DNA of 64,000 nt from Chiloscyllium plagiosum (lineage: Eukaryota): NCBI RefSeq assembly GCF_004010195.1, contig NC_057749.1:19426661-19490660 (forward strand), in the 5' to 3' direction. Below the pieces are notes generated by a model. That model saw only the letters and a program-made list of their open reading frames with translations, was not told where the DNA came from and did no database searches. Below, one piece after another: positions 2,629-50,505 of the stretch; within the stretch, counting starts at the first letter, position 1, and every line of letters starts with the position of its first letter. The position numbers were made by a program, and so were the translations under genes.

Positions 2629-2984
2629 CCCTGGAAGGATTTCCCCGAAACACTCCACTATGCTGCTCTATGCCACTCATGAACAGATCATCAGGTCATT
2701 TATTTCATTGTTAAGGGACTGTAGGGAAGACAGACTGTCCAACCTTCTCACCCAAGAGCAGAACACTAGCTGGTTCTCCTGTGTGTGCTGTGGGTTCAAC
2801 AGCCTTGATGTACTGGGCTGGACAATACAGTGGCAAATTTCATCTCAGTTGCAGGTGTTGTTTTAAACAAGCAGAAGGTGCAAAACCTCCCAGTAACTCA
2901 GCAGGTAGCAGCACAATGGCCAGTTTGAGGCTGACCTATTCCTGTGTACAACTGGAAACTTGCAACTCCAACATTATGACATGA

Positions 2985-5705
2985 TTTGGAGAGGCCGGTG
3001 TTGGACTGGGGTGTACAAAGTTAAAAATCACAACCCCAGGTTATAGTCCAACAGGTTTATTTGGAGGCACCAGCTTTTGGAGCGCAGCTCCTTTATCGGG
3101 TGGTTGTGGAGAATAAGATTGTAAGACACAGAATTTATAGCAAAAGTTTACAGTGTGATGTAACTGAAAATATATATTGAAATAGACCTGGACTGTTTGT
3201 TAAGTCTCTCAGCTTTTAGAATGACCATGTTGGCTTCAGTTCTTCCGTATGTAAATCACAAAACCTCTTTTAAAAAGTTACATTCTCAAATGAGTTTTAA
3301 CAACTGGTGCCACATTGGCCCAGATAATGTATTGAAGGTGTTAGCTCCCTGTGAGGCGTCTGTGCCACAATGGTCAGACTGATTCTAATCTAAAAAACGG
3401 ATTTACAGAATCTTACATGTCTTCATGTAGTTTTTGAGTAAAGTAAATGTAATTCTGCAAGTACAAATTCAACCCACAAAGTGTCTGCGAGAGGGTGTGA
3501 GTGTGTAAAGGGGTTTAAATCTGTGAGAGCGTGTGTGTAGAAGTGTATGTGTGAGTGTATGACAGTGGGTGTGAGTGCGTGCATGCGTGCGTATATAAAG
3601 TGCAATGGAGTCACCTGTAGTGTGACATGAACCCAAGATCCCGGTTGAGGCCATCCCTATGGGTACCGAACTTGGCTATCAGCCTCTGCTCGGCCACTTT
3701 TCACTACTGCCTGTCCCGAAGTCCGCCTTGGAAGATGGTCATCCGAAGATCCAAGGTCAAATGTCCTGGACCGCTGAAGTGTTCTCCGACTGGGAGGGAA
3801 CACTCTTGTCTGTTTGTTCTGCAGTGTCCATTCATCCTTTGCCGTAGCCTCTGTTTGGTCTCGCCAATGTACCATGTCTCAGGGCATCCTTGTCTGCAGC
3901 GTATGAGATAGACAACGTTGGCTGAGTGGCATGAGTCCCTGCCACGTACATGGTAGGAGGTGTACCCACTCGTAATGATGGTATCAGTGTCGACACTCTT
4001 GCAGCGTCTTGCATGAGACAGGATTGTATGGAGTTGTCCTGAAAGCCGGACAGCTTGCTACAAACAATGATCTGTTTGAGGTTTGGTGGCTGTTTAAAGG
4101 CAAGAGGTGGAAGTGTGGGGAAGGTCTTGGCGAGATGCTCATCCTCATTGATAATGTGTTGCAGGCCGCGAAGAACATGGCATAGTTTTTCTGCTCCTGG
4201 GAAGTACTGGACAACAAAGGGTACCCTGTTGGTTGCAGCACGTCTGTCTCCTGAGGTGGTCATTACGGTTCCTTACTGTGGCACGTCTGAACTGGTGGTC
4301 GATGAGTTGGGCATCGTACCCCGTTCTTAACAGGGCATCCCTGAGTACTTCCAAGTGCCCATCACGTTCCTCATCTGAGCAAATCCTGTGTATGCATTGG
4401 GCTTATCCATAGGGGAAGGCTGTTTTCATGATTTGAGTGGAAGTTGGAGAAATGTATCAATGTAGAGAGAAATCACTGAAAAAACTACACAGTGATATCA
4501 ACAAGTTTCATCCCACCATCAAATTCACCATGGACTACACTCTACTATCTGTCTCATTCTTGGACACGTGCATGTCCATCAAGGATGGGCACCTCACTCT
4601 ACCACAAACCCATGGATAACCTCACGATGCTACATTTCACCAGCTTCCACTGGAAACATATTAAAACATCCATCGCCTATGGATAAGCCCTACACATACA
4701 CAGGATTTGTTCAGAGGAGGAAGAACGTGATGGGCACTTGGAAGTACTCAGGGATGCCCTCTTAAGAACAGGGTACGATGCCCAACTCATCGACCACCAG
4801 TTCAGACGTGCCACAGTGAGGAACTATAATGACCTCGTCAGGAGGCAGACATGTACTGCAACCAACAGGGTTGCCTTCGTTGTCCAGTACTTCCCAGGAG
4901 CAGAAAAACTACACCATGTTCTTCACGGCCTGCAACACATTATCAATGAGGATGAACACCTCGCCTTTAAACAGCCACCAAAACTCAAACAGATCATTGT
5001 TCGTAGCAAATTGCCTGGCTTTCAGGAGAATTCCATGCAACCCTGTCACGGTAGACGCTGTAAGACGTGTCAGAGTGTTGACACGGACACCTCCCACCAT
5101 GCACATGGCAGGGACTCATGCCACTTGGCCAACATTGTCTATCTCTCATACACTGCAGACAAGGATGCCCTGAGACATGGCACATTGGCGAGACCAAACA
5201 GAGGCTCCTAACCCCGCACACATACACATAAAAGTTTGTGGGTTGAATTTGTACTTGCAGAATTATATTTACTTTACTCAAAAACTGCATGAAGCCATGT
5301 AAGATTCTGTAAATCCGTTTTTTAGATTAGAATCAATCAGTCTGACCATTGTGGCACAGACGCCTCACAAGGAGCTAACACCTTCAATACTTTATCTGGG
5401 CCGACATGGCACCAATTGTTAAAGTTCACTTGAGAATGTAAAGTTCACTTTTTTAATAAAGTTTTGCGATTTACATACGAAAGAACTGAAGCCAACATGG
5501 TCATTCTAAAAGCTGAGAGACTTAGCAAACAATCCAGGTCTTTTTCAATATATAATTTCAGTTACATCACACTGTAAACTTTTGCTATAAATTCTGTGTC
5601 TTACAATCTTATTCTCCACAACCACCTGATGAAGGAGCGTCGCTCCGAAAGCTAGTGCTTCCAAATAAACCTATTGGACTACAATCTGGTGTTGTGTGAT
5701 TTTTA
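2985..5705. mobile_element. Penelope-like element (family A), inverted double copy with TSD
   Basis: Left arm (-, ~2985-4458) and right arm (+, ~4460-5705) encode degenerate RT7/thumb (SFLDT, LYHKP, IAYG), Cys linker (PCHGRRCKTC) and GIY-YIG remnants; the 3' UTRs are reverse complements; TSD attatgacat at 2973-2982 and 5706-5715. Confidence 0.88.
5623..5657 (+). ncRNA. Minimal type I hammerhead ribozyme motif (PLE family A)
   Basis: CAC-CUGAUGA-A-GGAGC-GUC-GCUCC-GAAA-GC-UA-GUG: intact core, 5-bp stem II, 3-bp stem I, palindromic AGCU helix III typical of dimeric PLE hammerheads. Confidence 0.75.
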
Positions 5706-6113
5706 ATTATGACATAAATAGATTCCAAAGTACTTCACTGGCTGTAAACCCTTTTGTAATGTCTGTAGGAAGTGAGAAGTATTATAGAAATGCACCCTCT
5801 TCCCCTTTTCAATACCCAGGACTTCAATCACAGCTTCAGTCATCTTTGTCTAACTCTACGGCTGCGCTATATCAGTTGTCATCATCTTGAAATCCACTGG
5901 GAATTACTGCCCCTTGAAGGTACTAAACAATTCACAAGGTGACTATCATTGGAAGAACTGGTTCAAGCCTTAGCCTTTTGGAAGTGGAATATCTGAATCA
6001 AGTCCTTTCCTGTGCGCCATTTCTGATAACTAACATTCTAAGCTGCAAGTTCTAACGATAAATTTTCCTGTTTTGTCAACGCATAAATATTAAACAAACA
6101 GGCAGGATCCTAC

Positions 6114-6203: not shown

Positions 6204-8277
6204 CTGCAATTACAACACAGCTGCTGACTTATGGCAGTGACACACAGACCTGCAGTTATTATTACCACACAGAATAAAATAGCTTTTCACAAAATTCTAT
6301 ACGACTATTCCATCAGTAAATGCCTACAACATAAAGATACTTGTGCCTTTAACTCTGCCCTCTTCAACAGACCTGCTCCTCCATAGGCAGTTGTGCCTAG
6401 AGTTGCCTGAATTTTACAGTGGAGGTCAAGAGCCTTTATTACTTAAAGCTTTTTTTTGGTAAATATGGTTATTAGCAAGAAAACAAATTTTTTGACTTTA
6501 TAAAAATATAAAGTTATTGAAAATATAACAAATAATAAATACCAGTACAATAAAGAAAAATGCAACTTACAATACAACTACTGTTTACTAACTACCCTAT
6601 AATACAAAACCCTAACTGTGCAAAACACCACCAATAAATATGTAAGCGACTAATAAAACAAAAAAAAACACACAAAAACACAAAATAGCTATGCTCGGAG
6701 CAAAGCTCCCAAACAAAAAAAAAACGGGAGAATTGTATATGTACCCGTATTAACTCAGGAGCCCCCCTCCAGGGCCCAGGGCTCAGCAAACCACACCATC
6801 CTGGTTTAAACAAATGCCCTAGTTAAGATAGCTGACAAATCTATATCCAAATAACTCAAAAAGGACTGCCGTATTTTATAAAAGAGGTCTATTGTGTAGT
6901 GCACCATGTTTGTAAAAAAAATCCAAGAGAATGTATTCCATAATCAATTTCTGCCATCCCAGCAAGCCCGGTGGGTTCTCAGGCACCCAATTCATCAGAA
7001 TATTCTTCTGTGCACTGTAAGCAAGATTAAATAGTTTCTTCCCATGCCCATCTGAAGATGATAAATTCAGGAGAGAGATCAGGTCTACTTTAACTTCGGT
7101 TCTCAATACCCTCCCCATCACTCCAGCCATGGCGCTCCAATAAACATGGAGCCTCTGGCATGTCCAGAAACAATCGGCAAGAGTATCTACACTTATTTCA
7201 CATTTGGGACACATTGAAGATGTCCCTTCGCCAGATAGTCCGATGCCAGATGAATCCTGTGCAGAACATTTAACTGGATAGCGCTTGTCCTATTACAGGA
7301 TTAGATCTTTTGCATGTTTTCCCTTATGTCCTTCCAAGTTTCAGAAGAGATCTCCACTCTTAGCTCTTGCTCCCAGGCCTAAAATAACCAATTAATATCC
7401 TGCCAGGCCCTGCCACCCAGCAGGCGATAGAGGGCACTAACCGAGAGGGCGCTTATGGTACATAGCAACAACCTTTATCAGGCTTACAGGGCTTAGTGAA
7501 AAGCACAGTCATCTTCTGGATGAAATCCCTAACCTGAAAAAAAAAGGCAAAGATCTCATATTTGCGGCTCAGTTGCTCGAAAGACATCATAACCTCCCCC
7601 TCAAACAAGTTTCCCAGACTGGAAACTCCTCTCGCTGCCCATAGTTTGAACCCTGAGTCCATCATCCCTGGTCAGAACCCTGGCATACCAACTATGGGCG
7701 TAAGTGGCAAAGTCTTGGATAAGCAACCCTCACTCTGACATATTGTTCTCCATGCCTTGACTGTACTAATAACAATGGGGTTCTGGCCATGGTCCATAAC
7801 GGTCCTCATCTTATCCATAAACAGGTTAATAAGAGGGCACTTTGCCTGGGAGGCCTCAATATGCAGCCATATCGAGCCCGGATCATCACCTGCCCAATCG
7901 CACACAAAGGACAGCAGGGAACTCAACTGATACCTCCTGATGTCTAAGAAATCAACTCCTCCCCATCCTTTAGGCAACTGCAACTTAGTAAGTTTAAGGA
8001 GGGGCCACCCACAAAGCCAGACAAAGGAACGAAACCAACCCATAAGTTTCCACAGCGATGACCTGGAAACATTAGAGGGAGCATAGGCATGGGATAAAGC
8101 AAACGAGGAAGGACATTCATCTTAATGAGGGTTATTCAGCCCAACCATGAAATTGGAAAAGCCTGTCATCTCTGGAGATCCTGCCTAATATGGTCGAGCA
8201 CGTGAGCGAAGTTAGTCCAAATTAGCAAGTGAGTCCGAAATAACTTATCAAATATGGGCGTAATAAAAATGCCGAGG

Positions 8278-8396
8278 AATCCTGATGAAGGGCTTCTGCC
8301 CGAATCGTCAAATCTGCTGCTCCTCGGATGCTGCCTGACCTGCTGTGCTTTTCCAGCACTACACTCCTGACTCGATCTCCAGTCCTCACTTTCTCC
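8278..8396 (+). mobile_element. PLE family B terminal fragment (hammerhead plus tail) inside the L1
   Basis: cctgatgaagggcttctgcccgaatcgtc...gatgctgcctgacctgctgtgcttttccagc...cctcactttctcc. Confidence 0.85.
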
Positions 8397-9997
8397 CTTC
8401 TATTTTAGCCCACCTGTCCTCACAACCTTCAGATCGATACAATTCAGAGTAAAAACTCCGAAAAGCCTCATTAATCCTTTTGGCATCGTATGTAAGGACC
8501 CCCAGTGCTGTCTCTAATTGCAGTAATGGATCGGGGAGCATGCTTTTTCCTAGTCAGATATGCTAAATACTTCACTGGCCTATCCCCATACTCGAACAGC
8601 CTTTGCCTAAAAAAAAGGCAAGTTCTTTCTTTGCAGTTTGTGTCAGTACTGAATTCAAGACAGCCCAGAGGGCCATGATTTGCTGTAGCTTAGTCACCAA
8701 AAGCTGTGCAAAATGTGCCACCTCGGTGGATTTCAACCGCATCTCAAGCGGACACTGCTGTTCCCCCTTCTGTCATTTCCTGCTAGCCAAATAGGGAATA
8801 GCTAATCCCCTAGCAAAGGCCTTAGCGGTCTCCCATAGCATAGACGGACAACTAGCCGTGCCTGAGTTGATAGTCAAGAATTCCTGAAACTCATTCAAAA
8901 AGTATTCCACAAATTTGGAATCCTTAAGGAGAAAAGGGTCCAAACGCCAGTGCCACAAACCTAGCCCCTCACTCTTGGCCTTAACCTCCAAACATACCGT
9001 TGGGTGATCAGAAACAGCTATTTTACAACCCATAATCGATCCAGAAGGGTCGAGGGAGCCAGAAAGAGATCAATCCTCGAGTGACATTTATGTGGGTTTG
9101 AAAAAAGGTGATGTTCCTGCCGGTAGGATGAAGACATCTCTAAATATCCACCAGCCCCAACTCCTCACATAAGTCAGTCACCTGCTTGGCCTGCAAAGAA
9201 ATAGTTGGGGGTCCACTGGGCATCCCGTCCACTGTCAGATCCAGAAGGTAATTAATGTCCCCCTCCTACAATAATGTGCTGTGTTCCAAAGTCGCTCACC
9301 AAAGATTTGAGGGGATGCGGAGGACAGGAGACATTTAAAATGCCATATTCCTCCCCATGTATCAGGGCCTTGAGTATCACAAACCGTTCTTGCTCATCTT
9401 TCACCTGCTCTAATAATGTGAATGGAAGATTTTTCTGGATAAGTACCACCACTCCCCTACTTTTAGTAAAAAAGGATGAAAAGAATACCCGGTCATAACC
9501 CCTCTGTTGTAACTTCAGGTGTTGCCCATCATCAAGATGGGTTTCCTGCAACAAAGTGATATCAACCTTTTCCCTCTTCAGGCTAGAAAGTATTTTTTTT
9601 CCTTTTAACAGGCAAATGACTTCCCTTGATGTTCCAGGTGCACCCAGGTTGGACCTGAGCACAGATCTCCTCACGGATCTCAACTACAGCCCCAACCTTC
9701 GAGGTAAGTCTCACCATCACTGCCACCAATTCCCGTGAGTCTGTCAGGTCCCCTGGGGTTTCAGGAGAGGCTGATGCTGTGGCCACTGGTGTGCCTGGTG
9801 CTGCAGGGGAGTGTCCTCCCTGCTGCTGTTTGCTCGCTCCTTTTCCTTTTGGCATCCTTCCCACTCCCAAGTATTAATGAATGTGTTCTATAAGGTTTTA
9901 AGCTAATAGTTCCTCAACATAAGTTGGCCAGGGATGGCAAAAAACATCAATATGCCTTGGCTGTTAGGCAGAGCCATACACGGCAGTTCTACAGAAT

Positions 9998-10010: not shown

Positions 10011-11018
10011 CAGATTCTCAAAAAAAAAGCTCTCTCTTAAAAAAAAGATTTGCCTAAAATAAAAACTTCTTGGGGGGGGGCGGCGTCACAGGTTGGGAAT
10101 TTTACATTGCTAAACCAAATATTTGACAAATGGCCAAGCAAGATATATATATTAAATTTATGTTACAATGGAAAAGAAATCAAAACTACAATAGATAGAA
10201 TTCTGATTTATTCATTTGTTATGATTTTGTGAAAAATGCTGAGTGAAATTGTTTGTGTGGAATTAAAACAATTTCTTCAGTTATTTATTCTTGAGATAAT
10301 AAAAGCTTCTAATAGGAAATTATGAATAATTTATTGTCTCTGACATAATCAAAACAATAATCACTACAACCGCAAGACTAGGTCCTCAAACCAGAGTTAT
10401 CTATAACCATCTGAAGGGTTACTGACTTAAAACCTTAACTCACTTTTCTTCTCCACAGATGCTGCCAGATCTGCTGAGTGTCTCCAGCAATTTCTGTTTC
10501 TGATACCATGTTTAGCTATACTACCCCCACGGATACAGAGCGTTATGTTAAATTAAATTACCATTTCAACCTTTAAAATGCAGCATAATGATTAATCTTT
10601 CACCTGCATAATAAAAATTTTTTTTTAAAATATTACTGTTTCAACTGGTAAAGACAAAGTTAGACAAAGTGTCGAAGAGTCACAGGTTGCAAACCTCTGC
10701 ACTAAACTTTGAGATCCTCTCTGTTTCTTTATCCTCCGTTAATTCCTTACTCCAACTCAGCTTTTCTGCATCATAAGGTTGCAACTAGCTAGGTGTTGAA
10801 TATTTTTGATAATGCTCCTGTGAAGAACCTTGGGACATCGAAGGCACTATACAAGGACAGTTATTGTTGGATGCTTGCCATTTGGGAACTTGCCACAAGT
10901 CTAGGAACTTTTTTTTTGAGAAAATAGCACAGTTGGAAAGGGACTACGCTCCAATGTATCTCACTGCAGGATTAAGATCAGGAATTATTAACACACAAAC
11001 ATATGCATCAAACATATG

Positions 11019-11115: not shown

Positions 11116-11658
11116 ATTCAACTCCAGAAATCTAACTCAAATCTAGACTGCCTCACCAATCCAGCACTAAGGGAATGCTGTGCTGTTGGAGACGCTATCT
11201 TTCAGTTGAGCAATTAAACTGAGACCCAAAATACCTTTTCAGTTGATTGTAAACAATGCCACACTTTTAAGTAGTGAGTGGTGTTTCTGGTTCATTTCAT
11301 TGTGCTCTGGAGGAGCCTGAAGCAGATTCCTGTTCAATTACCAATGCGGAACTGACTCCCACAGCTACCTAGATTATACCTCCTCCCACCCTGCCCCCTG
11401 TAAAAACACCATCCCATATTCCCAATTCCTTCGCCTTCGCCGCATCTGCTCCCAGGAGGACCAATTCCAATCCCGAACAACCCAGATGGCCTCCTTCTTC
11501 AAAGACCGCAATTTCTCCTCAGACGTGGTTGACGATGCTCTCCACCGCATCTCCTCCACTTCTCGCTCCTCCGCCCTTGAGCCCCGCCCCTCCAATCGCC
11601 ACCAGGACAGAACCCCACTAGTCCTCACCTACCACCCCACCAACCTCCAGATACATCG

Positions 11659-12050
11659 NNNNNNNNNNNNNNNNNNNNNNNNNNNNNNNNNNNNNNNNNN
11701 NNNNNNNNNNNNNNNNNNNNNNNNNNNNNNNNNNNNNNNNNNNNNNNNNNNNNNNNNNNNNNNNNNNNNNNNNNNNNNNNNNNNNNNNNNNNNNNNNNNN
11801 NNNNNNNNNNNNNNNNNNNNNNNNNNNNNNNNNNNNNNNNNNNNNNNNNNNNNNNNNNNNNNNNNNNNNNNNNNNNNNNNNNNNNNNNNNNNNNNNNNNN
11901 NNNNNNNNNNNNNNNNNNNNNNNNNNNNNNNNNNNNNNNNNNNNNNNNNNNNNNNNNNNNNNNNNNNNNNNNNNNNNNNNNNNNNNNNNNNNNNNNNNNN
12001 NNNNNNNNNNNNNNNNNNNNNNNNNNNNNNNNNNNNNNNNNNNNNNNNNN
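11659..12050. other. Assembly gap (N run)
   Basis: 392 Ns. Confidence 1.
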
Positions 12051-12167
12051 CCCTCTCCGGCCTATCACCCTCATCTTAACCTCCTTCCACCTATCGTATT
12101 CCCAACACCCCTCCCCCAAGTCCCTCCTCCCAACCTTTTATCTTAGCCTGCTTGGTACACCCTCCTC

Positions 12168-12203
12168 ATTCCTGAAGAAGGGCTTATGCCCGAAACGTCA
12201 ATT
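12168..12203 (+). ncRNA. Minimal hammerhead motif (PLE family B)
   Basis: CUGAAGA-A-GGGC-UUAU-GCCC-GAAA-CGUC; stem I weakened. Confidence 0.65.
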
Positions 12204-13601
12204 CTCCTTTTCCTTTGATGCTGCCTGACCTGCTGCGCTTTTCCAGCAACACATTTTTAAGCTCAATTACCAATGCATCACAGTCATACAAAAGGACAAG
12301 TCACTACAATGGGACCAGGACCAGCATTTGAGGTAATGAGTTCAAATTCAACTACAGCAAGTTGAGATTTAACTCAATAAATGTGATAATTTGCAGCTAG
12401 CAGTAGAAAATGGAGATTAACAGCATAACTAGCCTTCACGGAAGAAAATCTGCCAGTTTTACCCAGCGTCCTCCAAGTGACTCCAGTCCCACTAAGGCTT
12501 GACTCAACCCTTAACGATAAAGAGCCAATACATACTGCCCTGCCAGTACCACAAATCATATTTTAACTCACCACTACACCAAGCATTGTGATTCATGTAC
12601 CGTACAGTAATCCCATTCCAAAATCTTTCAGTTACATTTGCAAGTTTTGCATAACATTTTTTGGAATGCAATTAATGTCGTGAAATTATTCCTCGTTTCA
12701 GTTCTTTATGACACGTTAGTGTTTTAATTTTGACCAATGCAACAACAGGACTGGTCATCTTAAGGAAGTTTGCTGGTGCCGCAGTTAGTGGCCATATTCC
12801 TGCTTCAAGGCCAAATGGATACTGAAGAGGACAGGATTAAATTTGTTCTACTGATTTCTGACAAAAAGGCCCATGTGAAACATTAACTCTTCTCTATCGC
12901 TCAATCTCACTGACCTGCATATTTATAGTGCTTCCTATTTTTATTACAGATTTGCACTGAGTGAGAAATGGGATCATTTAGCTTCAACAGAATGCCCCAG
13001 TTAACAGACTGCAGTATTGTGAAAGGTGAAGCAATGATCATTGAAAACATCAACCTTGTACTTGTTCAGAGTTGACTAATACACGTGACCATGATATATG
13101 TATGTACACAAACAGGCACACAAACACTAGTCTTCACCACGAAGGAGTTATCACATTTGTGGGAAGGCATCTTCACTTTAAGTCTACTGTTCAAGTTTGG
13201 ATCCAGAAGAAGAGGGCTTCAATAAATTAATGAGGCAGGAGGTGCTTCCCAATCATGACAGAAAGTCACTTCACTGAAGCACCACTGCTAATGATTCAGT
13301 GAAAAGCAGGATTAAGTAAACTAGCTGCCATCTCAGTCACTAAGGATTTTGTCACAAGTAACTGAAAAAAGGTGAAACTACATTACAATGATGGAAATAA
13401 AGCAGAGTTTTCAGATTACCAGTTAAGCAATTACACTGTTCAAAATCATTTTTCTACCTCAATACGTTCTGATGCTGAGGCACTTAGACACATATAAAGG
13501 AGGAGAGTCCCAAACATACAAAACATAACCAAGTACCAGAAATTGCTTATTGTATTCTATGTTGCTTAAAGTATGCAGTGCATGGAGAAATGCTCATGTA
13601 C

Positions 13602-21462: not shown

Positions 21463-21627
21463 AAGTTAAAAATTACACAACACTAGGTTATAGTCCAACA
21501 GGTTTATTGGAGGCACTAGCTTTTGAAGCGCTGCTTCTTCGTCCAGTGGTTGTGGAACAGAATCATACGACACAGAAGTTACAGCAACAGGATCATAGTG
21601 CCATGGATTGTAATATTAAACAAATTT
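21463..21627 (-). mobile_element. Decayed PLE family A terminal fragment in the short intron between exons 4 and 5
   Basis: aagttaaaaatt...ggttatagtccaacaggttt matches 3018-3190. Confidence 0.75.
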
Positions 21628-22856: not shown

Positions 22857-22917
22857 AGCCTGAGGGGAGTAAGCACTTGCATTCAACAACTTACTTCAAG
22901 GCACTCCATAGCAGAGT

Positions 22918-23129
22918 TTAAAAATGTGTTGCTGGAAAAGCGCAGTAGATCAGGCAGCATCAAAGGAACAGGAGAAACGACATTTCGGGCATAAGCCCTT
23001 CTTCAGGATTCCTGAAGGGGTTATGCCCGAAACGTCGATTCTCCTGTTCCTTGGATGCTGCCTGACCTGCTGCGCTTTTCCAGCAACACACTTTTAAGCT
23101 CTGATCTCCAGCATCTGCAGTCCTCACTT
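22918..23129. mobile_element. Palindromic PLE family B mini-insertion
   Basis: ~90-bp inverted arms with axis at aggattcct, 30-nt tail on the right arm, 15-bp TSD actccatagcagagt at 22903-22917 and 23130-23144. Confidence 0.9.
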
Positions 23130-25223
23130 ACTCCATAGCAGAGTGTCTACTCTGCCCAGCCTTGACATAAGGAAGCAAATGAAAGATTTGCATTTATATA
23201 GCCTCTTTGGCACCTCGTTGTGCCAAAGTACTTCTAGGGCCATTAGATTCCTTTGATTATGCTTGCAAAGTTGCAATGCAGCAAATACAGGAGCAAACTT
23301 GTATACCACTTGGTACCACAAACAGCAATGTGATAACAATAACATAGTTTGTTTTATTTGGCAGATAAGTATTAGCAACACACGAGGGATCTGCTCCAAT
23401 TCCAACAACCTCATGCAATTTTTTTCATTGTTGAAGTTAGACAGAGAGATCTCAGTGGTTTGTTTATCTCTGACTATGCCACATGGCATTCAAGTACCAG
23501 CCCGAATCAATGCTCAAATCTTGAAAGTAGAGCTCCAAGACTTTGATTTCAATGGTAGGAAAGAACTTATAACCACTTAATATGTAGATAAGCCATATTG
23601 GATTTGGTGCTTTGCGATGAGCTAGGCCAGGTGTCAGATCTCTTGGTGGGAGAGCATTTCAGTAACAGTGACCACAACCTTTACCAATGCCATGGAGGGG
23701 GATAGGAACAGACAGTATGAGGAGGTATTTCATTGAGGGAGGGGAATTATACTGCTATTAGACAGAAGCTAGGGAGTATAAATTAGGAACAATTGTTCTA
23801 TGGGAAATGCACAACAGAAATGTGGAGGCTGTTTAAAGAGCACTTGTTGCGAGTGTTGGATAACTTTGTCCCACTAAGACAGGCAAGAAAGGATAAGATG
23901 AAGAAGCTTTAGATGACAAAAGAGGAGCTTCTCATATAGAGGAAGGAAGCTTACTTGGAGGTTGAGGAAACAAGGATCTGCACAGCTTCAGAGGATTACA
24001 CAGTAGCTAGGAAAGTACTCAAAAATGGACTGAGCGCTAGGAGGGGGCATGAAAAAGCCTTGGCAGGAAGGATTAGGGAAAACCCAAAGGCATTCTACAC
24101 ATACGTGAGGAATAAGAGAATGATCAGAGAGAGGGTAGGATCAATCAGGAATAGTAAAGGGAACCTGTGCCTTGAGTCTGAAGAGGTAGGGGAGGCCCTT
24201 AAATGAGTTTTGAGCATCAGTATTCACTAGAGGGGGACCTTGTTGATGGCGAGAACGTTATGGACCAGGTGAATAGGCTTGAACAGATTGATATTAAGAA
24301 AGTGGATGTGATGGAAATTCTGGGAAGCATCAAGATAGATAAGTCCCCAAGGCCGGTCCAGGTATATCCAGGGAAGCAAGGAATGAGAATGCTGCATCTC
24401 TGGTGATGGTTTTCGCATCCTCACTCTCCACGGGAGAAGTACCAGATGATTGCAGGGAGGTAAATGTTGTTCCTCTGTTCAAGAAAGGGAATAGGGAAAT
24501 CCCTGGGAATTACAGACCAGTCAGTCTTACATCTGTGGTAAACAAGGGTGCTGAGACATAGGACTTATGACTATGTGGAAAAACAGTTTGATTAAAGATA
24601 GTCAGCATGGCGGTGCAGGTCATGCCTCACAACCCTTATTGAGATCTCAGAGGATGTGATGAGACAAGTTGACGAAGGTCGAGCAGTGGATGTGGTGTAT
24701 ATGGATTTCACAAAGGCCTTTGATAAGGTTCCCCACGGTAGGCTCATTCAGAAACTTAGGAGATATGGAATACAGGGAAATTTGGATGTCTGGATACAGA
24801 ATTGGCTGGCTGAAAGACAGCGAGTGATAGTGGATGGAAAGTATTTTGCCCGGAGGTTGGTGACCAGTAGTGTCCTGCAGAGATCTGCTCTTGGGCCTCT
24901 GCTCTTTATTGTTTTTATAAATGACTTGGATGAAGAAGTGGAAGGGTGGATTATTAAGTTTGCCAATGACACAAAGGTCAGTGGCGTTGTAGATAGCGTC
25001 AAGGGCTGTTGCAAGTTATAACAAGACATTGACAGGATGCAGGGCTAGGCTGAGAAGTGGCAGATGGAGTTTAACCTGGATAAGTGCGAAGTGATTCATT
25101 TTGGAAGGTCGAATTTGAATGCTGAAGAAAGGTTAAAGACAGGATTCTTGGCAGTGTGAAGGAACAGCGTGATCCTGGGGTCCACGTATATAGATCCCTG
25201 AAAGTTGCCACCCAAGTTGATAG

Positions 25224-25426
25224 CTGGAAATGTGTTGCTGGAAAAGCGCAGCAGGTCAGGCAGCATCCAGGGAACAGGAGAATCGACGTTTCGGGCATAA
25301 GCCCTTCTTCAGGAATTATGCCTGAAACGTCGATTCTCCTGTTCCCTAGATGCTGCCTGACCTGCTGCGCTTTTCCAGCAACACATTTCCAGCTCTGATC
25401 TCTAGCATCTGCAGACCTCACTTTCT
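25224..25426. mobile_element. Palindromic PLE family B mini-insertion nested in CR1
   Basis: Inverted arms, tail ctgatctctagcatctgcagacctcactttct, 14-bp TSD acccaagttgatag at 25210-25223 and 25427-25440. Confidence 0.92.
25281..25316 (-). ncRNA. Minimal hammerhead motif, sense to the host pre-mRNA
   Basis: AUUC-CUGAAGA-A-GGGC-UUAU-GCCC-GAAA-CGUC-GAUU; core intact. Confidence 0.7.
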
Positions 25427-27484
25427 ACCCAAGTTGATAGGATTGTTAAGAAGGCTTATGGTGTTTTGGCTTTCATTAACAGGGGGAATGAGTTTAAGAG
25501 CTGTAAGGTTTTGCTGCAGCTCTATAAAACCCTGGGTAGACCACACTTGAAATATTGTGTTCAGTTTTTGGTTACCTCATTATAGGAAGGATGTAGATGC
25601 TTTAGAGAGGGTGCAGAGGAGATTTACCAGAAGCTACCAGGATTGGAGGGCTTGTCTTATGAAGAGAGGTTGAGTGAGCTAGGGCTTTTCACACTGGAGA
25701 GGAGGAGAAAGAGGTGACTTGATAGAGATGTACAAGGTAGTGACAGGCATAGATAGACTAGATAGCTAGAGACTTTTCCCCAGGGCAGAAATGACTGTCA
25801 TGAGGGTTTAAGGTGACTGGAGGAAGGTACAGGGGAGATGTCAGAGGTAGGTTCTTTACACAGAGTGTGATGGGTGCATGGAATGCACTGCCAGTGGTGG
25901 TAAGTGAGTCAGGGACATATAAGCAACTGCTGGACAAGCACATGGACAGCAGTAAATTGAGGGGTATGTAGGTTACGTTGATCATAGATTGGCACAACAT
26001 CGTGGGCCAAAGGGCTTGTACTGTGCTATTCTATGTTCTAAATGTAATCAGCCAAAAGACTCGCCTATGAACATTCACTAAACACTACTGTGCCATTCTA
26101 CTTCCACCACACTAGTCCATAAAACCCTTGTCCAGACAGGGCTTTCTTTGGACACTTTAAATCAGGTTCTGCAAGGAAAAAAACTTTGAGATAGACAGTT
26201 TTTATTTCATTTAAACTTAATAGAAATATCTGCTGCATATCCCCAGCATGATGATATTGCATGCATATATCATATTCATGTGTAACCTTTTGTTCATAAC
26301 CCAAACTCTGCCCGTTTGACCATGCAGATTCAGAGCAGAAAGCTGCTTGAAGCAGCAAACTGGCCACAAGCTAATTGTGCTGGGTCAAGTTTCAGGCACC
26401 TTAGTTTTGAACAGAGTAAACCTTTAATTTGTTGGGAAGACTGGGTTTCTGAAGCCACCAACCTAACTCCTGCTCCATTTAATTTGCACTGTAGTAAGAA
26501 CAGTTCCTGACTGGCTGTTGAGTAGACTGGCAACAGTAGATTATCAGGGCATTTTATTGGAGTGCTACTAACTCTAATTGCACACTGATGCCAGAAACAC
26601 ACGAAACTCAAAGACCAGGTTCAAAGTCCTCTGAAGTCTATTATTCAATAAGATTATGGCTCAATGTCATCAACGTCACAATCCTGCCCCATTCCATATC
26701 CTTCAATTCCAAGAGCCCAAACATTTCACCACCTCAATCTTGAATGTACTCAGTAAGTGAGCACCCACAGCTCTGAGGTATAGAAATCCAGAGATTCACA
26801 ACCCTGAGTGAAGAAGTTTTATAATTCATTATTATGTCATTACTAAATACTTGCATCTTGGTGCAGACATGATATCTCTGCCATAAGGTCAGCATTGGTT
26901 TTGGGAAAGGCAGGAATCAGGAAAATGGGCCTCACCAGCTATCTGTATCGAAAAAAAATTCCAAACCATTTATCTTCATGCCATTGGCCAAGAGAGGTAG
27001 AGAGAACCAAACTCCTCTGACTAGAAAAATGCAGTTGATGACAAAGAGAAAAGACTTTCTTTTATACAGTGTCTGTCACAACCCAAGGCCAGTCGAGCAC
27101 TTTTGATATGTAGATATCATTATAATGGAGACGATGTGGAAACAAAATTGCAAACCATCTCTACAAACATTGACTCCTTCCACCAATGCTCAGCAGCAGC
27201 AACAGTGTATATCATTGACAAAATACCCTGCAGAAATTCACCAAGAGTCCAAATACAGAAGCATTATCATCTAGAAGAACAAGGGCAGCAAATACACAGT
27301 AATACCAGCAAATTTCCTCCCAAGCCACTCACCATCCTAACCTGGAAACAGCTCTCCATTCCTTCAGTGTTGTTGGGTCAAAATCCTGGAACAACTGTCC
27401 AATTGCATTCTGAGCCTACTTATGCAAAATGGGCTGCAGTGGTTCAAGAAGGCAGCTCACTACCACCTTCTCAAGGAACACTAG

Positions 27485-28060: not shown

Positions 28061-28095
28061 CTCTGCTAGCTGGGTCAGCATTTAACGTTCACATT

Positions 28096-28387
28096 TGGAG
28101 ATGTCGGTGTTGGACTGGGGTGTACAAAGTTAAAATCACACAACATCAGATTATAGTCCAACAGGTTTAATTGGAAGCATTAGCTTTCAGAGCACTGCTC
28201 CTTCAACAGGTGGTTGTGGAGTACACAGTTGTCAGACACAGAATTTAGAGACAGAATTTATTGGCTATAAATTCCGAGTCTTACAACTGTGTACTCCACA
28301 ACCACCTGTTGAAGGAGCAGCGCTCTGAAAGCTAATGCTTCCAATCAAACCTGATGGACTATTACTTGGTTTTGTGTGATTTATAAC
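28096..28387. mobile_element. Palindromic PLE family A mini-insertion
   Basis: ~125-bp inverted arms, left tail tggagatgtcggtgttggactggggtgtac, degenerate TSD aacgttcacatt/aatgtccacatt (28084-28095, 28388-28399). Confidence 0.88.
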
Positions 28388-29651
28388 AATGTCCACATTC
28401 TGTGTGAATTAACAAAGCAAGCTCCCATAAACATTAATCTAATAAGGGCCAGATAATTTGTAATGCTGGTTTTGCTTCATTCTTTCACGGGACATGGGCA
28501 TCACTCATGAGGCCATACCATGAGTAGAAATTAATTTTCGCTTCATTCCAAAGGTCATTTGTAGAGTAAGCCGTGAATCATGAATAGATAGATTTCTTTC
28601 CCGAATGTTAATAATGCTGAGACTAAGTTTACAATCCAGATTTGTTAACGGATGTTAAATTAAAATTACAATTTGAATCAGGCCTCATATAACTAGTCCT
28701 GTGACACTGTAGTTGTTCCACCATCCTCCCCCTTTTGTTGAACAATATATGTTTGTTCGAATGCAGAGGATTAGAGTAATAACATGTTCATTCCTTCTTC
28801 ACTAACAATACAAGGAACATTCTTAATCCATTCTTCAGCATTAAAACAGATAGCATGAAACTTTCCTTCTAGCAGAAGAAGCTAATGACATGTACTTAAT
28901 TTCACATTATGCAACCTATAAGTATAATTCATAAATAAATCAAACTACCCATAACACTAATGAACTGCACACCCCTCACTGGGTTAGCAGCTGGTTTTTG
29001 ATTTATAGCTCAGATTTTTCTTCAGGAGTGATGAAACTGTCAAAGTGTCTCTGAGCCATAGTTTGACAACCATTGGGAGTGATATGACCCACTGTTCATA
29101 CACTTCTCCCTTTCTGTAGGCAGTAGAATTTGTACTGTCTATACTTAGGCAGCAGACTGATGACTGTTCTCTCCAGACCTGTATAACCAACATATAGAAG
29201 TGCACTACCATGGTACAGTAGCATTAATGACATATTCCTAATAATTCGCAAATCACTATACCCAGCATCAATGTAATCCCCAATATAAAACTACATTCAG
29301 ACAGTGTGCAGACACACAGTAGAAAACACAACTGTCAATGTAGGCATAGCAAATTGAATGCAATACATCACCAGATAATCTGCCTTTAAATGATGTTAGA
29401 TGAGGGACATATAATGGCCAATGTGTCAGTAAGAGAACAGCATAATAGGGTGACAGACATTTTTGAATGCATCGAGCAAACTCAGTACCACAAGACATCA
29501 CACTGCAGTGAAGAATGTGGGTCTCAAAAAAACTGAAAGCAATTCTCAGAGTTTACTATTCAAGCCGAGGAAGTCAATTCCATTCATGAAGAGAAAAATT
29601 CAGTTCTTTCATCAACAACCTGACACTCAAGGTTCAAAGTTTGAGAGAGAG

Positions 29652-37170: not shown

Positions 37171-37384
37171 TGGGCAGAACGGACAATAAAATTTGACATT
37201 ACCAAAGAGTTTTTTAAAAAAAAAATCATCCATCAAACCAATGTTCACATTTATAATGGAAAAGATCTCAGTGACTGTTAATTAAACAAGAAACAATAAA
37301 TCAAAGAGCTGTTCAGTTGCACAGAATGGAAATCTCTCAATTCAACAAGTTGTAGACATCAAGAAACCAAACAGCGTATTTATC

Positions 37385-37708
37385 CATAGACAGCAGTAAC
37401 AATGCGACAGTTCGGTTTGTCAAGCTTCTTCCAAGAATAATTAGCTACACTAATGCCCTCGATATTTGTACAAAGGTTTACAAGCATGAAACAGGACAAT
37501 GGCTTGAGGCAACATTCCATGGCACACATGTTCTTGATGTGCCTCTCATAGACAGCAGTAACAATGCGACAGTTCGGTTTGTCAAGCTTCCTCCAAGAAT
37601 AATTAGCTACACTAATGCCCTTGATATTTGTACAAAGGTTTACAAGCATGAAACAGGACAATGGCTTGAGGCAACATTCCATGGCACTCATGTTCTTGAT
37701 GTGCCTCT
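37385..37708. repeat. Tandem duplication, 2 x 162 bp
   Basis: Units 37385-37546 and 37547-37708 are near-identical. Confidence 0.95.
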
Positions 37709-38174
37709 AATGACAGCTTCAACTCCAGTCTGCATTCAAACTCAAACAAAGTGGTAACTTGTTCTGACATCCTGTCACTTCTAGTTCCTGGTTAATGTGA
37801 TGGCCATGGCCCCAAAATATTCCTGTTTTTTCCAATCAAAGTCTGAAAAGGCAAGGACAATTAATCCTGTGTTTGGTTCCTTTTCAACCTCATACACTTT
37901 TAGAGATGCTGGCCATCACTGCACTTGCCCAGTTCAGTTGAGAGAGATCCTCTTAAATGAATGATTAAGGTAATTTCATCCAAAGAATATTTGAATAGCT
38001 TTTATCATACTTAAAACTTTCAATTTGCTAACTATTGTAGTCACAGGGCTGTGTGTTTTGTCATCTTAATCACCAAGACTTGTGCACACAAATGCAAAAC
38101 CAGGATTTCAGTAAACACTTTCCAGGGACTGTCATACTGAGCTCCAGAACCTTACTCATTAGCTACACAATGAA

Positions 38175-38374
38175 TTGGAGATGCCTGTGTTGGATTGGGG
38201 TGTACAAAGTTAAAAATCACAACACAGGTCATAGTCCAACAGGTTTAATTGGAAGCACTAGCTTTCGGAGAGCTGCTCCTTCATCAGGTGGTAAAGGAAT
38301 GGCGCTCCGAAAGCTAGTGCTTCCAATTAAACCTGTTGGACTATAACCTGGTGTTGTGTGTGATTTTTAACTTT
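38175..38374. mobile_element. Palindromic PLE family A mini-insertion
   Basis: Inverted arms, left tail, TSD ctacacaatgaa/ctacgcaattaa (38163-38174, 38375-38386). Confidence 0.88.
38256..38290 (-). ncRNA. Minimal hammerhead motif, sense to the host pre-mRNA
   Basis: CAC-CUGAUGA-A-GGAG-CAGCU-CUCC-GAAA-GC-UA-GUG; core intact. Confidence 0.7.
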
Positions 38375-39687
38375 CTACGCAATTAAAAGCTGACTTCACA
38401 TGGTAGACAAACTTCAAGGAGGCAGCCTGCATTGTGCCAGAGATAATGTATTCTTCGAAGTTGAGGCGTTGCATACCATGTTCACTTCCTATTTAATTCA
38501 GAGCCTCCGTGATGGACTTGAGCAAAGAGATGTACCAGTTCGAAAACCAGGAGACTCAATGACTGAAACCCATCATCCAGTCTTTTCATCGTTCCTTTCA
38601 ACAACCCCCTCCATTGGTATTGAAGAGGAGAGCCTTCACACAAGTCATTTGCACAATTGAACACTACAACTTCAGAAATGCTTGCAAGTCATTGACAATG
38701 GCATTCATCACACCACCAATAGTGAACCTTCCCCATGGCTCTCATCCATCCCTACACAGTATGTGGAGCATGACTACACGTTGCCAACGTTAATTCTTTC
38801 AGAGTATTTGACTTCACCCTTCTCCACACAGAACACAGGGACAAGACATGGCCATTCAGCCCCTCATGTCTTCCACCATTCAATTCAAGTTAATGGCTGA
38901 TTTGTATCTCAGCATCATCTTGGTTCCATAACCCTCAAAACCCCACCTACGAAAATCTATCATTTTCAGATTAATTAAAACCCTCAACTGGTTCCACCCA
39001 GAGAAAAGAGCTGCAGAAGCGATTTCTGACATCACCTCCATATAGCTGAGTTTGACCTTTGTGAATTCGGTTCCCAAAGGAAACAGTTGGACAGAAATTC
39101 CAAACTCCTTTACAGCATCTTAAAGATTCATTTCTTTTGTAAAATGCATCGTGATAAACTTAAGATCTGTTGAATTCTTGTCTTATAACTCAAACATATC
39201 CTCAAAGACCAACATCAGCCAGCACAATAGACCAGCTGTAAATATACAGTGACAATGTCTCAATCAAACTCTGAATTTCCCACTACTTCTCCATGCTCTC
39301 TTACAAGATTTAATATGCCCAAGGTTTGATGTTGTTCTTTCATCTCAGAAGTTCTCTATTTTCTTAACCTATTCAAGATACTTGTTGCTCTCCAGTCCTT
39401 CCTGCATTTAGTGACTGCTGCAGTTTGAGAGAGAAGACTACTAAATTATCTGTAAGGAAAGAATATGCAAGATTTACAGGTAGATGAGGTAATAGCAATA
39501 GCTATGTTGCTCATTTGGAGAGCCATACGCATATGGGCCAATTGGCCTTATTCTACGCTATAACTGTTTATATGATTCTTTGAAGAGACTGGCTTCCTTG
39601 GATACTCCTGTAATTTTCAAAGGTTAGATTTTAGTGAACCACCCACAAAGAGGTCTTGCAGTAGAAAGTGTCTTTCAAAACAGTATA

Positions 39688-41498: not shown

Positions 41499-42113
41499 TA
41501 AGAAAAGTTACAAATGTTAAGAATGTTACAATTCATACTAACAGCAATTCCAGAAAACTACAACATTACATTAACAAATGAAGGCTATATCAGGACAGAT
41601 GCCTGATTATATAAACCAGTAGTCCTTTTCGGGTTATTCAAATGAATTAGTGGATAGACTCCAGTCATTTTTTTTTGAGCTGAATTAACTAAAAGTAAAA
41701 TGATTAGCATTAGTGAAAAAGCTAACTGTAGAGACAGTTAATGCCCTGCTACTCATTAGATTTGCCATTAGCCTACAATTACTAAAACAATCAGCTTTGC
41801 AAATTATCAAACTAAACAAACAGTCTTATAGTCAAAACTACATAACATTCTTACCAGACCAAGAGAAATCGCTTGACTAACTGTAAACGGTGTAAATAAA
41901 GACAACATTTATATCGGATTTTTCAAAACACCAGGGCATTCCAAAGTATTTAGAGCAAAGCACTTTTTGAGGTACACTAATATTTGTATATAAAAAGCAC
42001 AACTGCAAATTTGGGCAAGAGTTCCCACAAAGAATGGTTTGAATAATCGGAGAACCTGTTTTTCAGGGTTTGAGGGATAGCCTTTGGCCAGGAGATAGCA
42101 CAGCATTTTCTTT

Positions 42114-42902
42114 GGCCCTCCAACGCATCTCGTCCACATCCCGCACCTCCGCCCTCAGACCCCACCCCTCCAACCGTAACAAGGACAGAACGCCCCTGGT
42201 TCTCACCTTCCACCCGACAAACCTCCGCATAAACCAAATCATCCGCCGACATTTCCGCCACATCCAAAAAGACCCCACCACCAGGGATATATTTCCCTCC
42301 CCACCCCTTTCCGCCTTCCGCAAAGACCGTTCCCTCCGTGACTACCTGGTCAGGTCCACGCCCCCCCCACGACCCACCCTCCCATCCTGGCACCTCCCCC
42401 TGCCACCGCAGGAACTGTAAAACCTGCGCCCACACCTCCTCCCTCACCTCCATCCAAGGCCCCAAAGGAGCTTTCCACATCCATCAAAGATTTACCTGCA
42501 CATCCACTAATATCATCTACTGTATCCGTTGCTCCCGATGCGGTCTCCTCTACATTGGGGAGACTGAGCGCCTCCTAGCAGAGCGCTTTAGGGAACATCT
42601 CCGAGACACCCACACCAATCAACCAAACCGCCCCGTGGCCCAAAATTTCAACTCCCCCTCCCACTCTGCCGAGGATATGGAGGTGCTGGGCCTCCTCCAC
42701 CGCCGCTCCCTCACCACCAGACGCCTCTCACCCATTGTACTCTATGCTACTCTCTCCTCACCCCCACCTAGCTTATCTCTCCACGCTTCAGGCTCTCTGC
42801 CTTTATTCCTGATGAAGGGCTTTTGCCTGAAACGTCGATTTTGCTGAAGCTCCTCGGATGCTGCCTGAACTGCTGTGCTCTTCCTGGACCATTGATCCAG
42901 AA
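42114..42902 (+). mobile_element. 5'-truncated Penelope-like element (Neptune-like, family B)
   Basis: Cys linker PCHRRNCKTC and GIY-YIG endonuclease NIIYCIRCSRCGLLYIGET...RFREH; internal deletion after LTTRR; 3' pLTR. Confidence 0.92.
42805..42840 (+). ncRNA. Minimal hammerhead motif (PLE family B)
   Basis: AUUC-CUGAUGA-A-GGGC-UUUU-GCCU-GAAA-CGUC-GAUU. Confidence 0.7.
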
Positions 42903-46990: not shown

Positions 46991-47261
46991 CCAGGTGGTT
47001 TCACACTAGTGAACCAGGTGGCTTCTTCTGACAATTGACAATGGTTTCGTGGTCGGCATTAGACTCAATGATTGGATTCAAATTCTACCATCTGTCATTG
47101 TGGGATTCGAACCTGGGTCTCCAGAATGTTACCTGGGTCTCTGGATTAACAGTCTATCACCTCTCACTGTTTCAAGTCCAGTTGGATATTGTATTTTTTT
47201 AAATTAAAGAAAGATTCTGCTTAGTCCTGTCAGCTTAATGCCACTTTCCTCAATTAATCTC

Positions 47262-50273: not shown

Positions 50274-50505
50274 CAAAAACAGAAGTGCTGAAAAGGCTCA
50301 GCAGGTCTGGCAGTATCCATGGAGAGAAAGCAGACTTAACATTTCGGATCAAATCACCTTTCCTCAGTTGTTCTGAGGAAGGGTCACTCAACCCGAAACA
50401 TTAACTCGGCTTTCTCTCCATAGAAGCTGCCAGACCTGCTGACTTTACAGCCATTTCTGTTTTTGTTTCTGATTTACAGCATCCATAGCTCTTCTGGTTT
50501 TTATT
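50274..50505. mobile_element. Older palindromic PLE-type mini-insertion (family C)
   Basis: Inverted arms with axis at tcctcagttgttctgagga; both arms carry CUGAGGA..GAAA; tail on the right arm. Confidence 0.75.

Follow-up and report, generated by a model that had tools for sequence, protein, structure and literature searches.

Penelope-like elements (PLEs) typically insert with an inverted copy and a one-sided tail (PMC8557442, PMC3846280, PMC8969392, PMC2377424); in the descriptions of canonical EN+ PLE insertions, the inverted copy is 5'-truncated and the tail measures 30-40 bp (Craig 2021, PMC8557442; Arkhipova 2013, PMC3846280; Schostak 2008, PMC2377424). How the inverted ends and pseudo-LTRs of these elements form is called unexplained (PMC2377424, PMC8557442). 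Metazoan PLEs also carry minimal hammerheads, in which stem II is preceded by an extra base, stem I is short and stem III is palindromic, and pairs of such motifs on opposite strands, 100-700 bp apart, are mentioned in passing, neither as a class nor with an explanation in the part of that paper covered (Cervera and de la Pena 2014, PMC4209133). For the Anolis Poseidon element PAc, the PLE protein, a predicted dimer, cuts and extends both strands in vitro, RT has two start sites with the tail lying between them, and the RNA is used uncleaved, with ribozyme cleavage unneeded; the formation of the inverted copy and the end points of the cDNAs are not addressed in the portion of the paper covered (Frangieh 2024, PMC11167929).

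Here we analysed a stretch of 64,000 nucleotides from Chiloscyllium plagiosum (hereafter the window), which contains five short hairpin-shaped insertions with a one-sided tail, termed hairpin-tails. They share with canonical EN+ PLE insertions the head-to-head copy, the tail at one end, the target-site duplication (TSD), the GIY-YIG partner and the hammerhead in the terminal repeat; unlike in the descriptions cited above, both copies are minimal and enclose no internal sequence, such forms make up about half of the tail-bearing copies, and their 5' wall is sharp. In the literature searched (full texts, with few subscription papers among them), neither minimal hairpins as a class nor a run-off at the RNA 5' end was described, and the class is not named in the part of PMC5753468 covered.

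Results

Five hairpin-tail insertions of three families

The first-pass annotation had described five insertions of one architecture drawn from three sequence families. Both the inverted repeats with an unpaired tail on a single side and the families, namely A (22918 and 25224), B (28096 and 38175) and C (50274), were borne out (Table 1), while details of TSDs, axis, ribozyme and tail needed correction. Rather than four clear TSDs of 12-15 bp, two were clear, being exact in the focal element, whose body spans 22918-23129 (15 bp), and in the second family A element (14 bp); in either case, 1 of 392 random pairs did equally well or better. The 12-bp TSDs of the two family B elements contain two mismatches, a score equalled by 3% of random pairs, and the best candidate at 50274 is a doubtful 9 bp, equalled by 7%. 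The symmetry axis, said to lie at or just 5' of the hammerhead, sits at its 5' edge in four elements; in 28096, it is placed about 40 nt further upstream, at a TATA-like motif. As for the tail, the claimed length of about 30 nt is close to the ~32 nt of 22918, which is a shortened form of the ~36 nt that family A has genome-wide (ends near +61 and +97, numbered with the predicted hammerhead cleavage site as the zero point). More solo PLE termini (A-like, B and C) occur in the window at 370-570, 8275-8400, 21463-21590 and 10413-10502.

Table 1 Coordinates of hairpin-tails and related features in the window
Feature	Position	Strand	Remarks
Family B insertion of 2.7 kb, hairpin-tail design	2973..5715	.	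tailed arm minus, tail-less arm plus, coding remnants inside; exact 10-bp TSD (2973-2982, 5706-5715)
TATA-like box of family B (5586-5592) with initiator-like site	5586..5620	+	inferred transcription start 5618, 8 nt before hammerhead core
Coding copy of family A, 5'-truncated, partly unread	11321..12264	+	ends in same terminus as hairpins; initiator-like site 12165-12170, inferred start 12168 (-32)
Coding remnant, older sister family of A	42043..42884	+	GIY-YIG endonuclease and hammerhead-bearing end
Inverted repeats of the five hairpin-tails	22912-23103, 25215-25401, 28133-28382, 38225-38350, 50298-50442		arms 81-92% complementary
Left TSD of focal family A element	22903..22917	.	15 bp, exact repeat at 23130-23144
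Focal tail-less arm	22918..23008	-	family A PLE terminus copied from ~+60 back to ~-30
Focal minimal type I hammerhead motif	22975..23010	-	core start 23006; stem III changed in this copy; architecture as in PMC4209133
Focal tail-bearing arm	23009..23097	+	3 nt of hammerhead core missing; symmetry axis 23009
Focal tail	23098..23129	+	stretch between the two inferred RT start sites
Right TSD of focal element	23130..23144	.	15 bp
Second family A hairpin-tail	25210..25440	+	14-bp TSDs 25210-25223 and 25427-25440; centre differs (-32/-16); minus-arm hammerhead intact
Family B hairpin-tail	28084..28399	-	tail left; axis near TATA-like motif; degenerate 12-bp TSD (28084/28388)
Family B hairpin-tail	38163..38386	-	axis at 5' edge of hammerhead; degenerate 12-bp TSD (38163/38375)
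Family C hairpin-tail	50274..50505	+	older; TSD doubtful

Relation to coding Penelope-like elements

Coding relatives of two families had been reported in the window, and those of A and B were indeed found: the same termini close the coding remnants of family A, of its older sister and of family B listed in Table 1. Pfam recognised a GIY-YIG domain at 42233-42844 (23.6 bits against a cut-off of 22.6), and the family B insertion contains another at 3704-4057 (E=1.7e-4, slightly under the gathering score) as well as HTH_animal look-alikes, which are also present in the family A copy (score 0.97, recognition below 2300). These two GIY-YIG stretches represent the PLE trait of a terminus contiguous with an ORF for RT plus GIY-YIG at the C terminus; the RT core itself was not seen in the window, Pfam left the thumb-region ORFs unnamed and gave no relevant match for three of five proteins, and a PDB search with the GIY-YIG remnant returned no match. 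Another PLE trait, a one-sided tail of 30-40 nt with an inverted adjacent copy and a TSD, was found with ends at ~+61 and ~+97 and a TSD mode of 14-16 bp, with one double-tail exception. This locus (L099), in which either arm bears a tail and no TSD was called, is the only such case among 50 unbiased loci. Thus, the hairpin-tails are supported as PLE ends and as products of retrotransposition, as the first reading had proposed; the element type appears to be Penelope/Poseidon, with the assignment to Poseidon being an impression.

At the L050 locus, the tail continues into a reading frame starting near +140, which we take to encode a PLE-like N-terminal peptide; the ribozyme and the tail would therefore sit in the 5' untranslated region. 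The ORF of family A lies ~140 nt past the ribozyme, whereas that of PAc begins inside it (PMC11167929). Tailed inverted arms adjoin ORF-bearing copies at L112, L116, L120 and other loci, and at the L095 centre and L122 family A copies lie within family B termini, with B sequence duplicated. The window holds further repeats as well: an apparently young 762-aa open frame with a LINE endonuclease end and RT (47239-49527), presumably of a CR1/L2-type LINE; broken LINE remnants on the minus strand (6876-9683), which we assume from the look of their peptides to be L1/Tx1-like; and a tandem repeat of ~150 bp (37356-37757), either strand of which contains open frames.

Hammerhead motifs

A hammerhead-core scan of the window returned nine motifs, four of them within the five hairpin elements. 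All nine display the three features that define the minimal hammerheads of metazoan PLEs (PMC4209133), and hence the terminal repeats carry predicted ribozymes of this type. As read from the sequence, 25224 and 38175 each have a single arm in which both the core and the palindromic stem III are intact; stem III is altered in 22918 and 50274, and 28096 has an identical core change in both arms. An Rfam scan of the window gave no hammerhead at E<=1 and seven weak matches to miRNA hairpins, all below gathering. Among 28 unbiased hairpins, 9 retained an intact minimal hammerhead and 1 had both motifs intact. Furthermore, in the predicted folds of three hairpins the core was paired, and 12-18 kcal/mol would be needed to free it.

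Abundance of hairpin-tails and their centres

The family A tail 23-mer (23098-23120) had 54,324 exact matches in 3.56 Gb, compared with 0 for the control. We sampled 110 tail or hairpin loci and 20 ORF-adjacent stretches in total; the loci comprised the 30 best matches to the whole hairpin (biased for the junction), 30 of the 40 best matches to a single arm together with its tail (representing one young subfamily) and, as the unbiased sample, the first 50 tail loci along contig C1. Of the unbiased 50, 26 were short hairpin-tails, and in another 2 hairpin-tails the inverted arm was long. There were also 13 short solos and 4 long copies with a tail; 3 loci could not be read upstream, and the remaining two were a double-tail hairpin and the second half of a complex locus. 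With short hairpins at 26/50 of the tail matches (95% interval 37-66%), we estimate at least 28,000 independent short events in family A. Sizes form a continuum from solos over short hairpins to long inverted copies, including 2973-5715 in the window.

The centres of the sampled hairpins, whose shared or unique junctions had been suggested as a check, were all distinct, both in the young subfamily (17/17, from 30 loci) and in the unbiased sample (28/28, from 50 loci), giving 45/45 unique centres and thus de novo formation. The focal junction has 21 copies genome-wide, of which 14 are on one haplotype and 6 on another, with arms that match in both sets, and 1 is mixed; this junction therefore arose repeatedly. 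The two arms agreed at 242 of 255 diagnostic sites in 70 hairpins, where 41.5% discordance was expected, and minor alleles were common to both arms 78 times versus 23.0 +/- 4.3 in 1000 shuffles. Hence, both arms usually come from one source; the L021 copy, which has two of the 13 discordant sites, may have two. Outer ends cluster at ~+61 and ~+97 with a target overlap of ~1.3 nt (chance ~0.4), and the TSD was 14-16 bp in 42 of the 54 loci (out of 80) in which one was called, ranging from 10 to 19 bp overall rather than having the fixed length of a transposase product. In 26 of 45 hairpins, it was the tail-less arm that extended further 5'; in 12 it was the tailed arm, and in 7 the ends were level. 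The junction filler at the centres of L077, L071, L105 and L129 was templated, consisting of brief repeats of PLE sequence from upstream or of the flanking target.

A 5' wall near position -32

Among 75 readable inner ends of the unbiased sample, 31 fell at -36..-28, 2 at -4..+4 and 6 beyond -36, a count that leaves out copies bounded by unread sequence and thus undercounts long ones. Because arm ends are rare at the cleavage site and pile up 28-36 nt upstream of it, the ribozyme is a passenger in the hairpin insertions; the axis lies near the hammerhead seemingly since the template RNA begins there, not through cleavage. Genome-wide, exact family A 17-mers fell from 53,979 (-32..-16) to 28,015 (-37..-21) and 21,584 (-71..-55), that is, by 48% across five bases at -32 and by 23% across the next 34, although such counts also mirror subfamily variation. 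The same wall was present in ORF-bearing copies (20 of the 40 top matches to the ORF start, 19 of them readable): no readable 5' end lay beyond -34, nine ended at -29..-34, and none of the nine copies reaching -29 went beyond -37 (P=0.001 were half of them to cross). The adjacent inverted arm bore the tail in 7 of the 8 ORF-bearing cases that could be read. About half of all arms reaching -32 extend further upstream, which implies that additional templates come into play (a 3' repeat copy, read-through or jumps).

The family A wall sits on an initiator-like motif, of which position -32 is the A. Family A has a weak TATA match only, and family B has a TATA box 32 nt ahead of an initiator-like motif similar to that of family A. 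The step in family B was predicted from this TATA box, in a prediction recorded together with the first two counts, and the counts across the predicted start indeed dropped from 17,959 to 9,094, followed by 9,174 further up. An extra G is a capping mark in full-length L1 insertions (PMC11702581). Just 5' of -32, an extra G was found in 54/100 unfiltered rows, compared with 41/100 in a control (P=0.09) or with 40/78 (P=0.76); once rows attributable to the partner arm or to a point mutation had been removed by hand, the counts were 54/87 versus 24/62 (P=0.008), and 29/38 versus 11/28 at the control end (P=0.005). These data suggest a G excess as capping would leave, which depends on the hand filtering.

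In the one usable RNA run (X19), the 1801 reads were dominated by those of scattered genomic copies and showed no start peak; 92% continue into unlike sequence, and the commonest 5' loose end, at -32, mirrors the genomic copies and is uninformative on the transcription start. In a separate observation, hairpin centres were crossed by poly(A) RNA reads (at L047:1465-1490, one joint had 9 reads from 8 starts). Transcripts thus include hairpin copies, from which double-stranded RNA could arise. Two other origins of the wall were considered and rejected: run-off at the ribozyme cleavage site, where only 2/75 ends lie, and a splice acceptor, as there is no AG at the wall and no common upstream exon in the 19 ORF-bearing ends. 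From these sequence counts, we infer that the wall at -32 probably corresponds to a capped transcription start. Not every PLE has this layout, as the start of D. virilis Penelope is found ~120 nt upstream of the ribozyme (PMC2377424 with PMC4209133).

Discussion

Our main reading, to which we assign a probability of about 0.7, is that hairpin-tails are PLE cDNAs primed de novo on both target strands, run off the RNA 5' end at about -32 and joined head to head. An autonomous Penelope/Poseidon-type element would supply the RT-GIY-YIG protein, which, probably as a dimer, would nick both target strands 14-16 bp apart, and each nicked 3' end would prime RT at one of two fixed sites in the 5' UTR (~+61 and ~+97 in family A), the tail being the stretch between them. 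On an uncleaved RNA template that would begin at about -32, just ahead of the hammerhead, both cDNAs would run off after ~90 and ~130 nt; their 3' ends would be variably trimmed and then joined in head-to-head orientation, the overlap or filler being a few nt long, and fill-in would yield the TSD. One short cDNA alone would leave a solo stub, and a short plus a long one would produce the textbook PLE with an inverted end. The fixed outer ends, the length of the TSD, the wall, the template haplotype common to both arms and the distinct centres are features of the genomic copies; the capped start at the wall, the dimer geometry and the repair route are what we infer.

This scheme agrees with PAc, for which cutting and extension of both strands, two tail-bounding RT starts and dispensable cleavage are described (PMC11167929). 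The abortive, doubly primed PLE insertion offered as one option by the first-pass annotation is supported by the unique centres, the rarity and the two haplotypes of the focal junction and the high share of short hairpins. As in L1 twin priming (PMC11702581), the second strand primes a second cDNA, the TSD is kept and the centre is end-joined, but L1 cDNAs cover adjacent parts of the RNA, whereas those of hairpin-tails copy the same stretch from two fixed sites.

The other option offered at the outset, a non-autonomous ribozyme-hairpin class, would make the hairpin an amplifying unit, either a ribozyme retro-hairpin or a MITE-like DNA transposon. Tens of thousands of copies of similar size, with a few recurring junction types, could give this impression; yet all 45 centres differ, the recurring junction is rare (21 copies) and lies on two haplotypes, the TSDs have no fixed short length, the ends are asymmetric with a tail on one side as is foreign to a MITE or TIR transposon, and the hammerhead core is intact in 9/28 and buried in the folded hairpin RNA. 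Non-LTR retrozymes are likewise non-coding, hammerhead-bearing and PLE-related (PMC7229834; bioRxiv 10.64898/2026.07.22.740005), but they are amplifying head-to-tail tandems with intact hammerheads, while hairpin-tails are head-to-head dead ends with unique centres. Hairpin-tails do not amplify as a unit, and for family A the focal junction and centre data refute an amplifying element, which we regard as the least credible of all the readings. Fold-back self-priming, which resembles an idea in PMC3846280, would have a single cDNA bend back at its 3' end and serve as its own template. It would account for the concordance of the arms, including rare variants present in both (6 cases). It needs a tailed arm that extends at least as far 5' as the other, however, and the opposite was found in the 26 of 45 hairpins mentioned above, by 200-300 nt in L065 and L103; nor does it explain a fixed second end at ~+61 with an intact TSD, and we consider it largely refuted and very improbable.

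Two further explanations accept short cDNAs and differ on where they come from or why they stop. If short RNAs of solo stubs, a SINE-like pool using the same initiator, served as templates in place of full-length mRNA, the great excess of stubs over ORF-bearing copies (13 short solos per 50 unbiased loci) and their retained initiator-like site would fit; against this, the stubs lack the upstream sequence at the TATA position, and ORF-bearing copies (7 of 9 scorable, of 20) have their commonest arm haplotype in common with hairpins (8 of 14 scorable), which makes such a source improbable in our view, if slightly less so than fold-back. Alternatively, double priming may be right and the wall a hotspot of RT stalling or trimming at the 5' edge of the hammerhead, where a quasi-palindrome lies at -31..-24. 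In family A the wall falls on stem I, many junctions make use of the quasi-palindrome, and no RNA start was seen, so this explanation deserves more weight than the preceding ones; still, about half of all arms cross the wall and 0/9 ORF-bearing copies do, partnerless solos end at it too, and ends at -4..+4 are rare (2/75) even though RT reaches the 3' side of an RNA structure first. We therefore judge stalling unlikely.

Retroviruses make minus-strand strong-stop DNA by priming internally near the RNA 5' end and running off at the cap. Run-off from the two PLE priming sites raises the tentative idea, which we hold to be possible but on balance doubtful, that PLEs make a comparable strong-stop cDNA, that a jump of this cDNA normally rebuilds the pseudo-LTR, and that hairpin-tails are the cases in which both cDNAs failed to jump and were joined. 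They differ from the retroviral case in being primed by nicked target DNA on both strands, and strand transfer is suggested by L050 only. Direct partial tandems, consisting of a terminus, the ORF start and a second terminus ending at the tail-less site, occur at L050:1440-2050 and L057:1440-1900. In the former, a single case, one copy stops at -33 and continues from there into ORF sequence, the trace expected of a template jump, which fits a jump after run-off; the latter fits a microhomology deletion with a target duplication of >100 bp. If true, the strong-stop reading would answer where pseudo-LTRs and inverted ends come from and would predict PLE start sites from genomes alone.

Overall, hairpin-tails do not constitute a new class of element but are a very abundant, extreme form of the way in which PLEs are known to insert; what they add is a mapped 5' wall and the mechanism it suggests. 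Since their repeats mimic MITEs and miRNA hairpins, mis-annotation is likely. The set maps the priming sites, the nick spacing and the template's 5' end to the base, and it ties the in vitro result on the anole element to a genomic structure; the run-off model offers a testable clue to the integration of the poorly understood PLE class.
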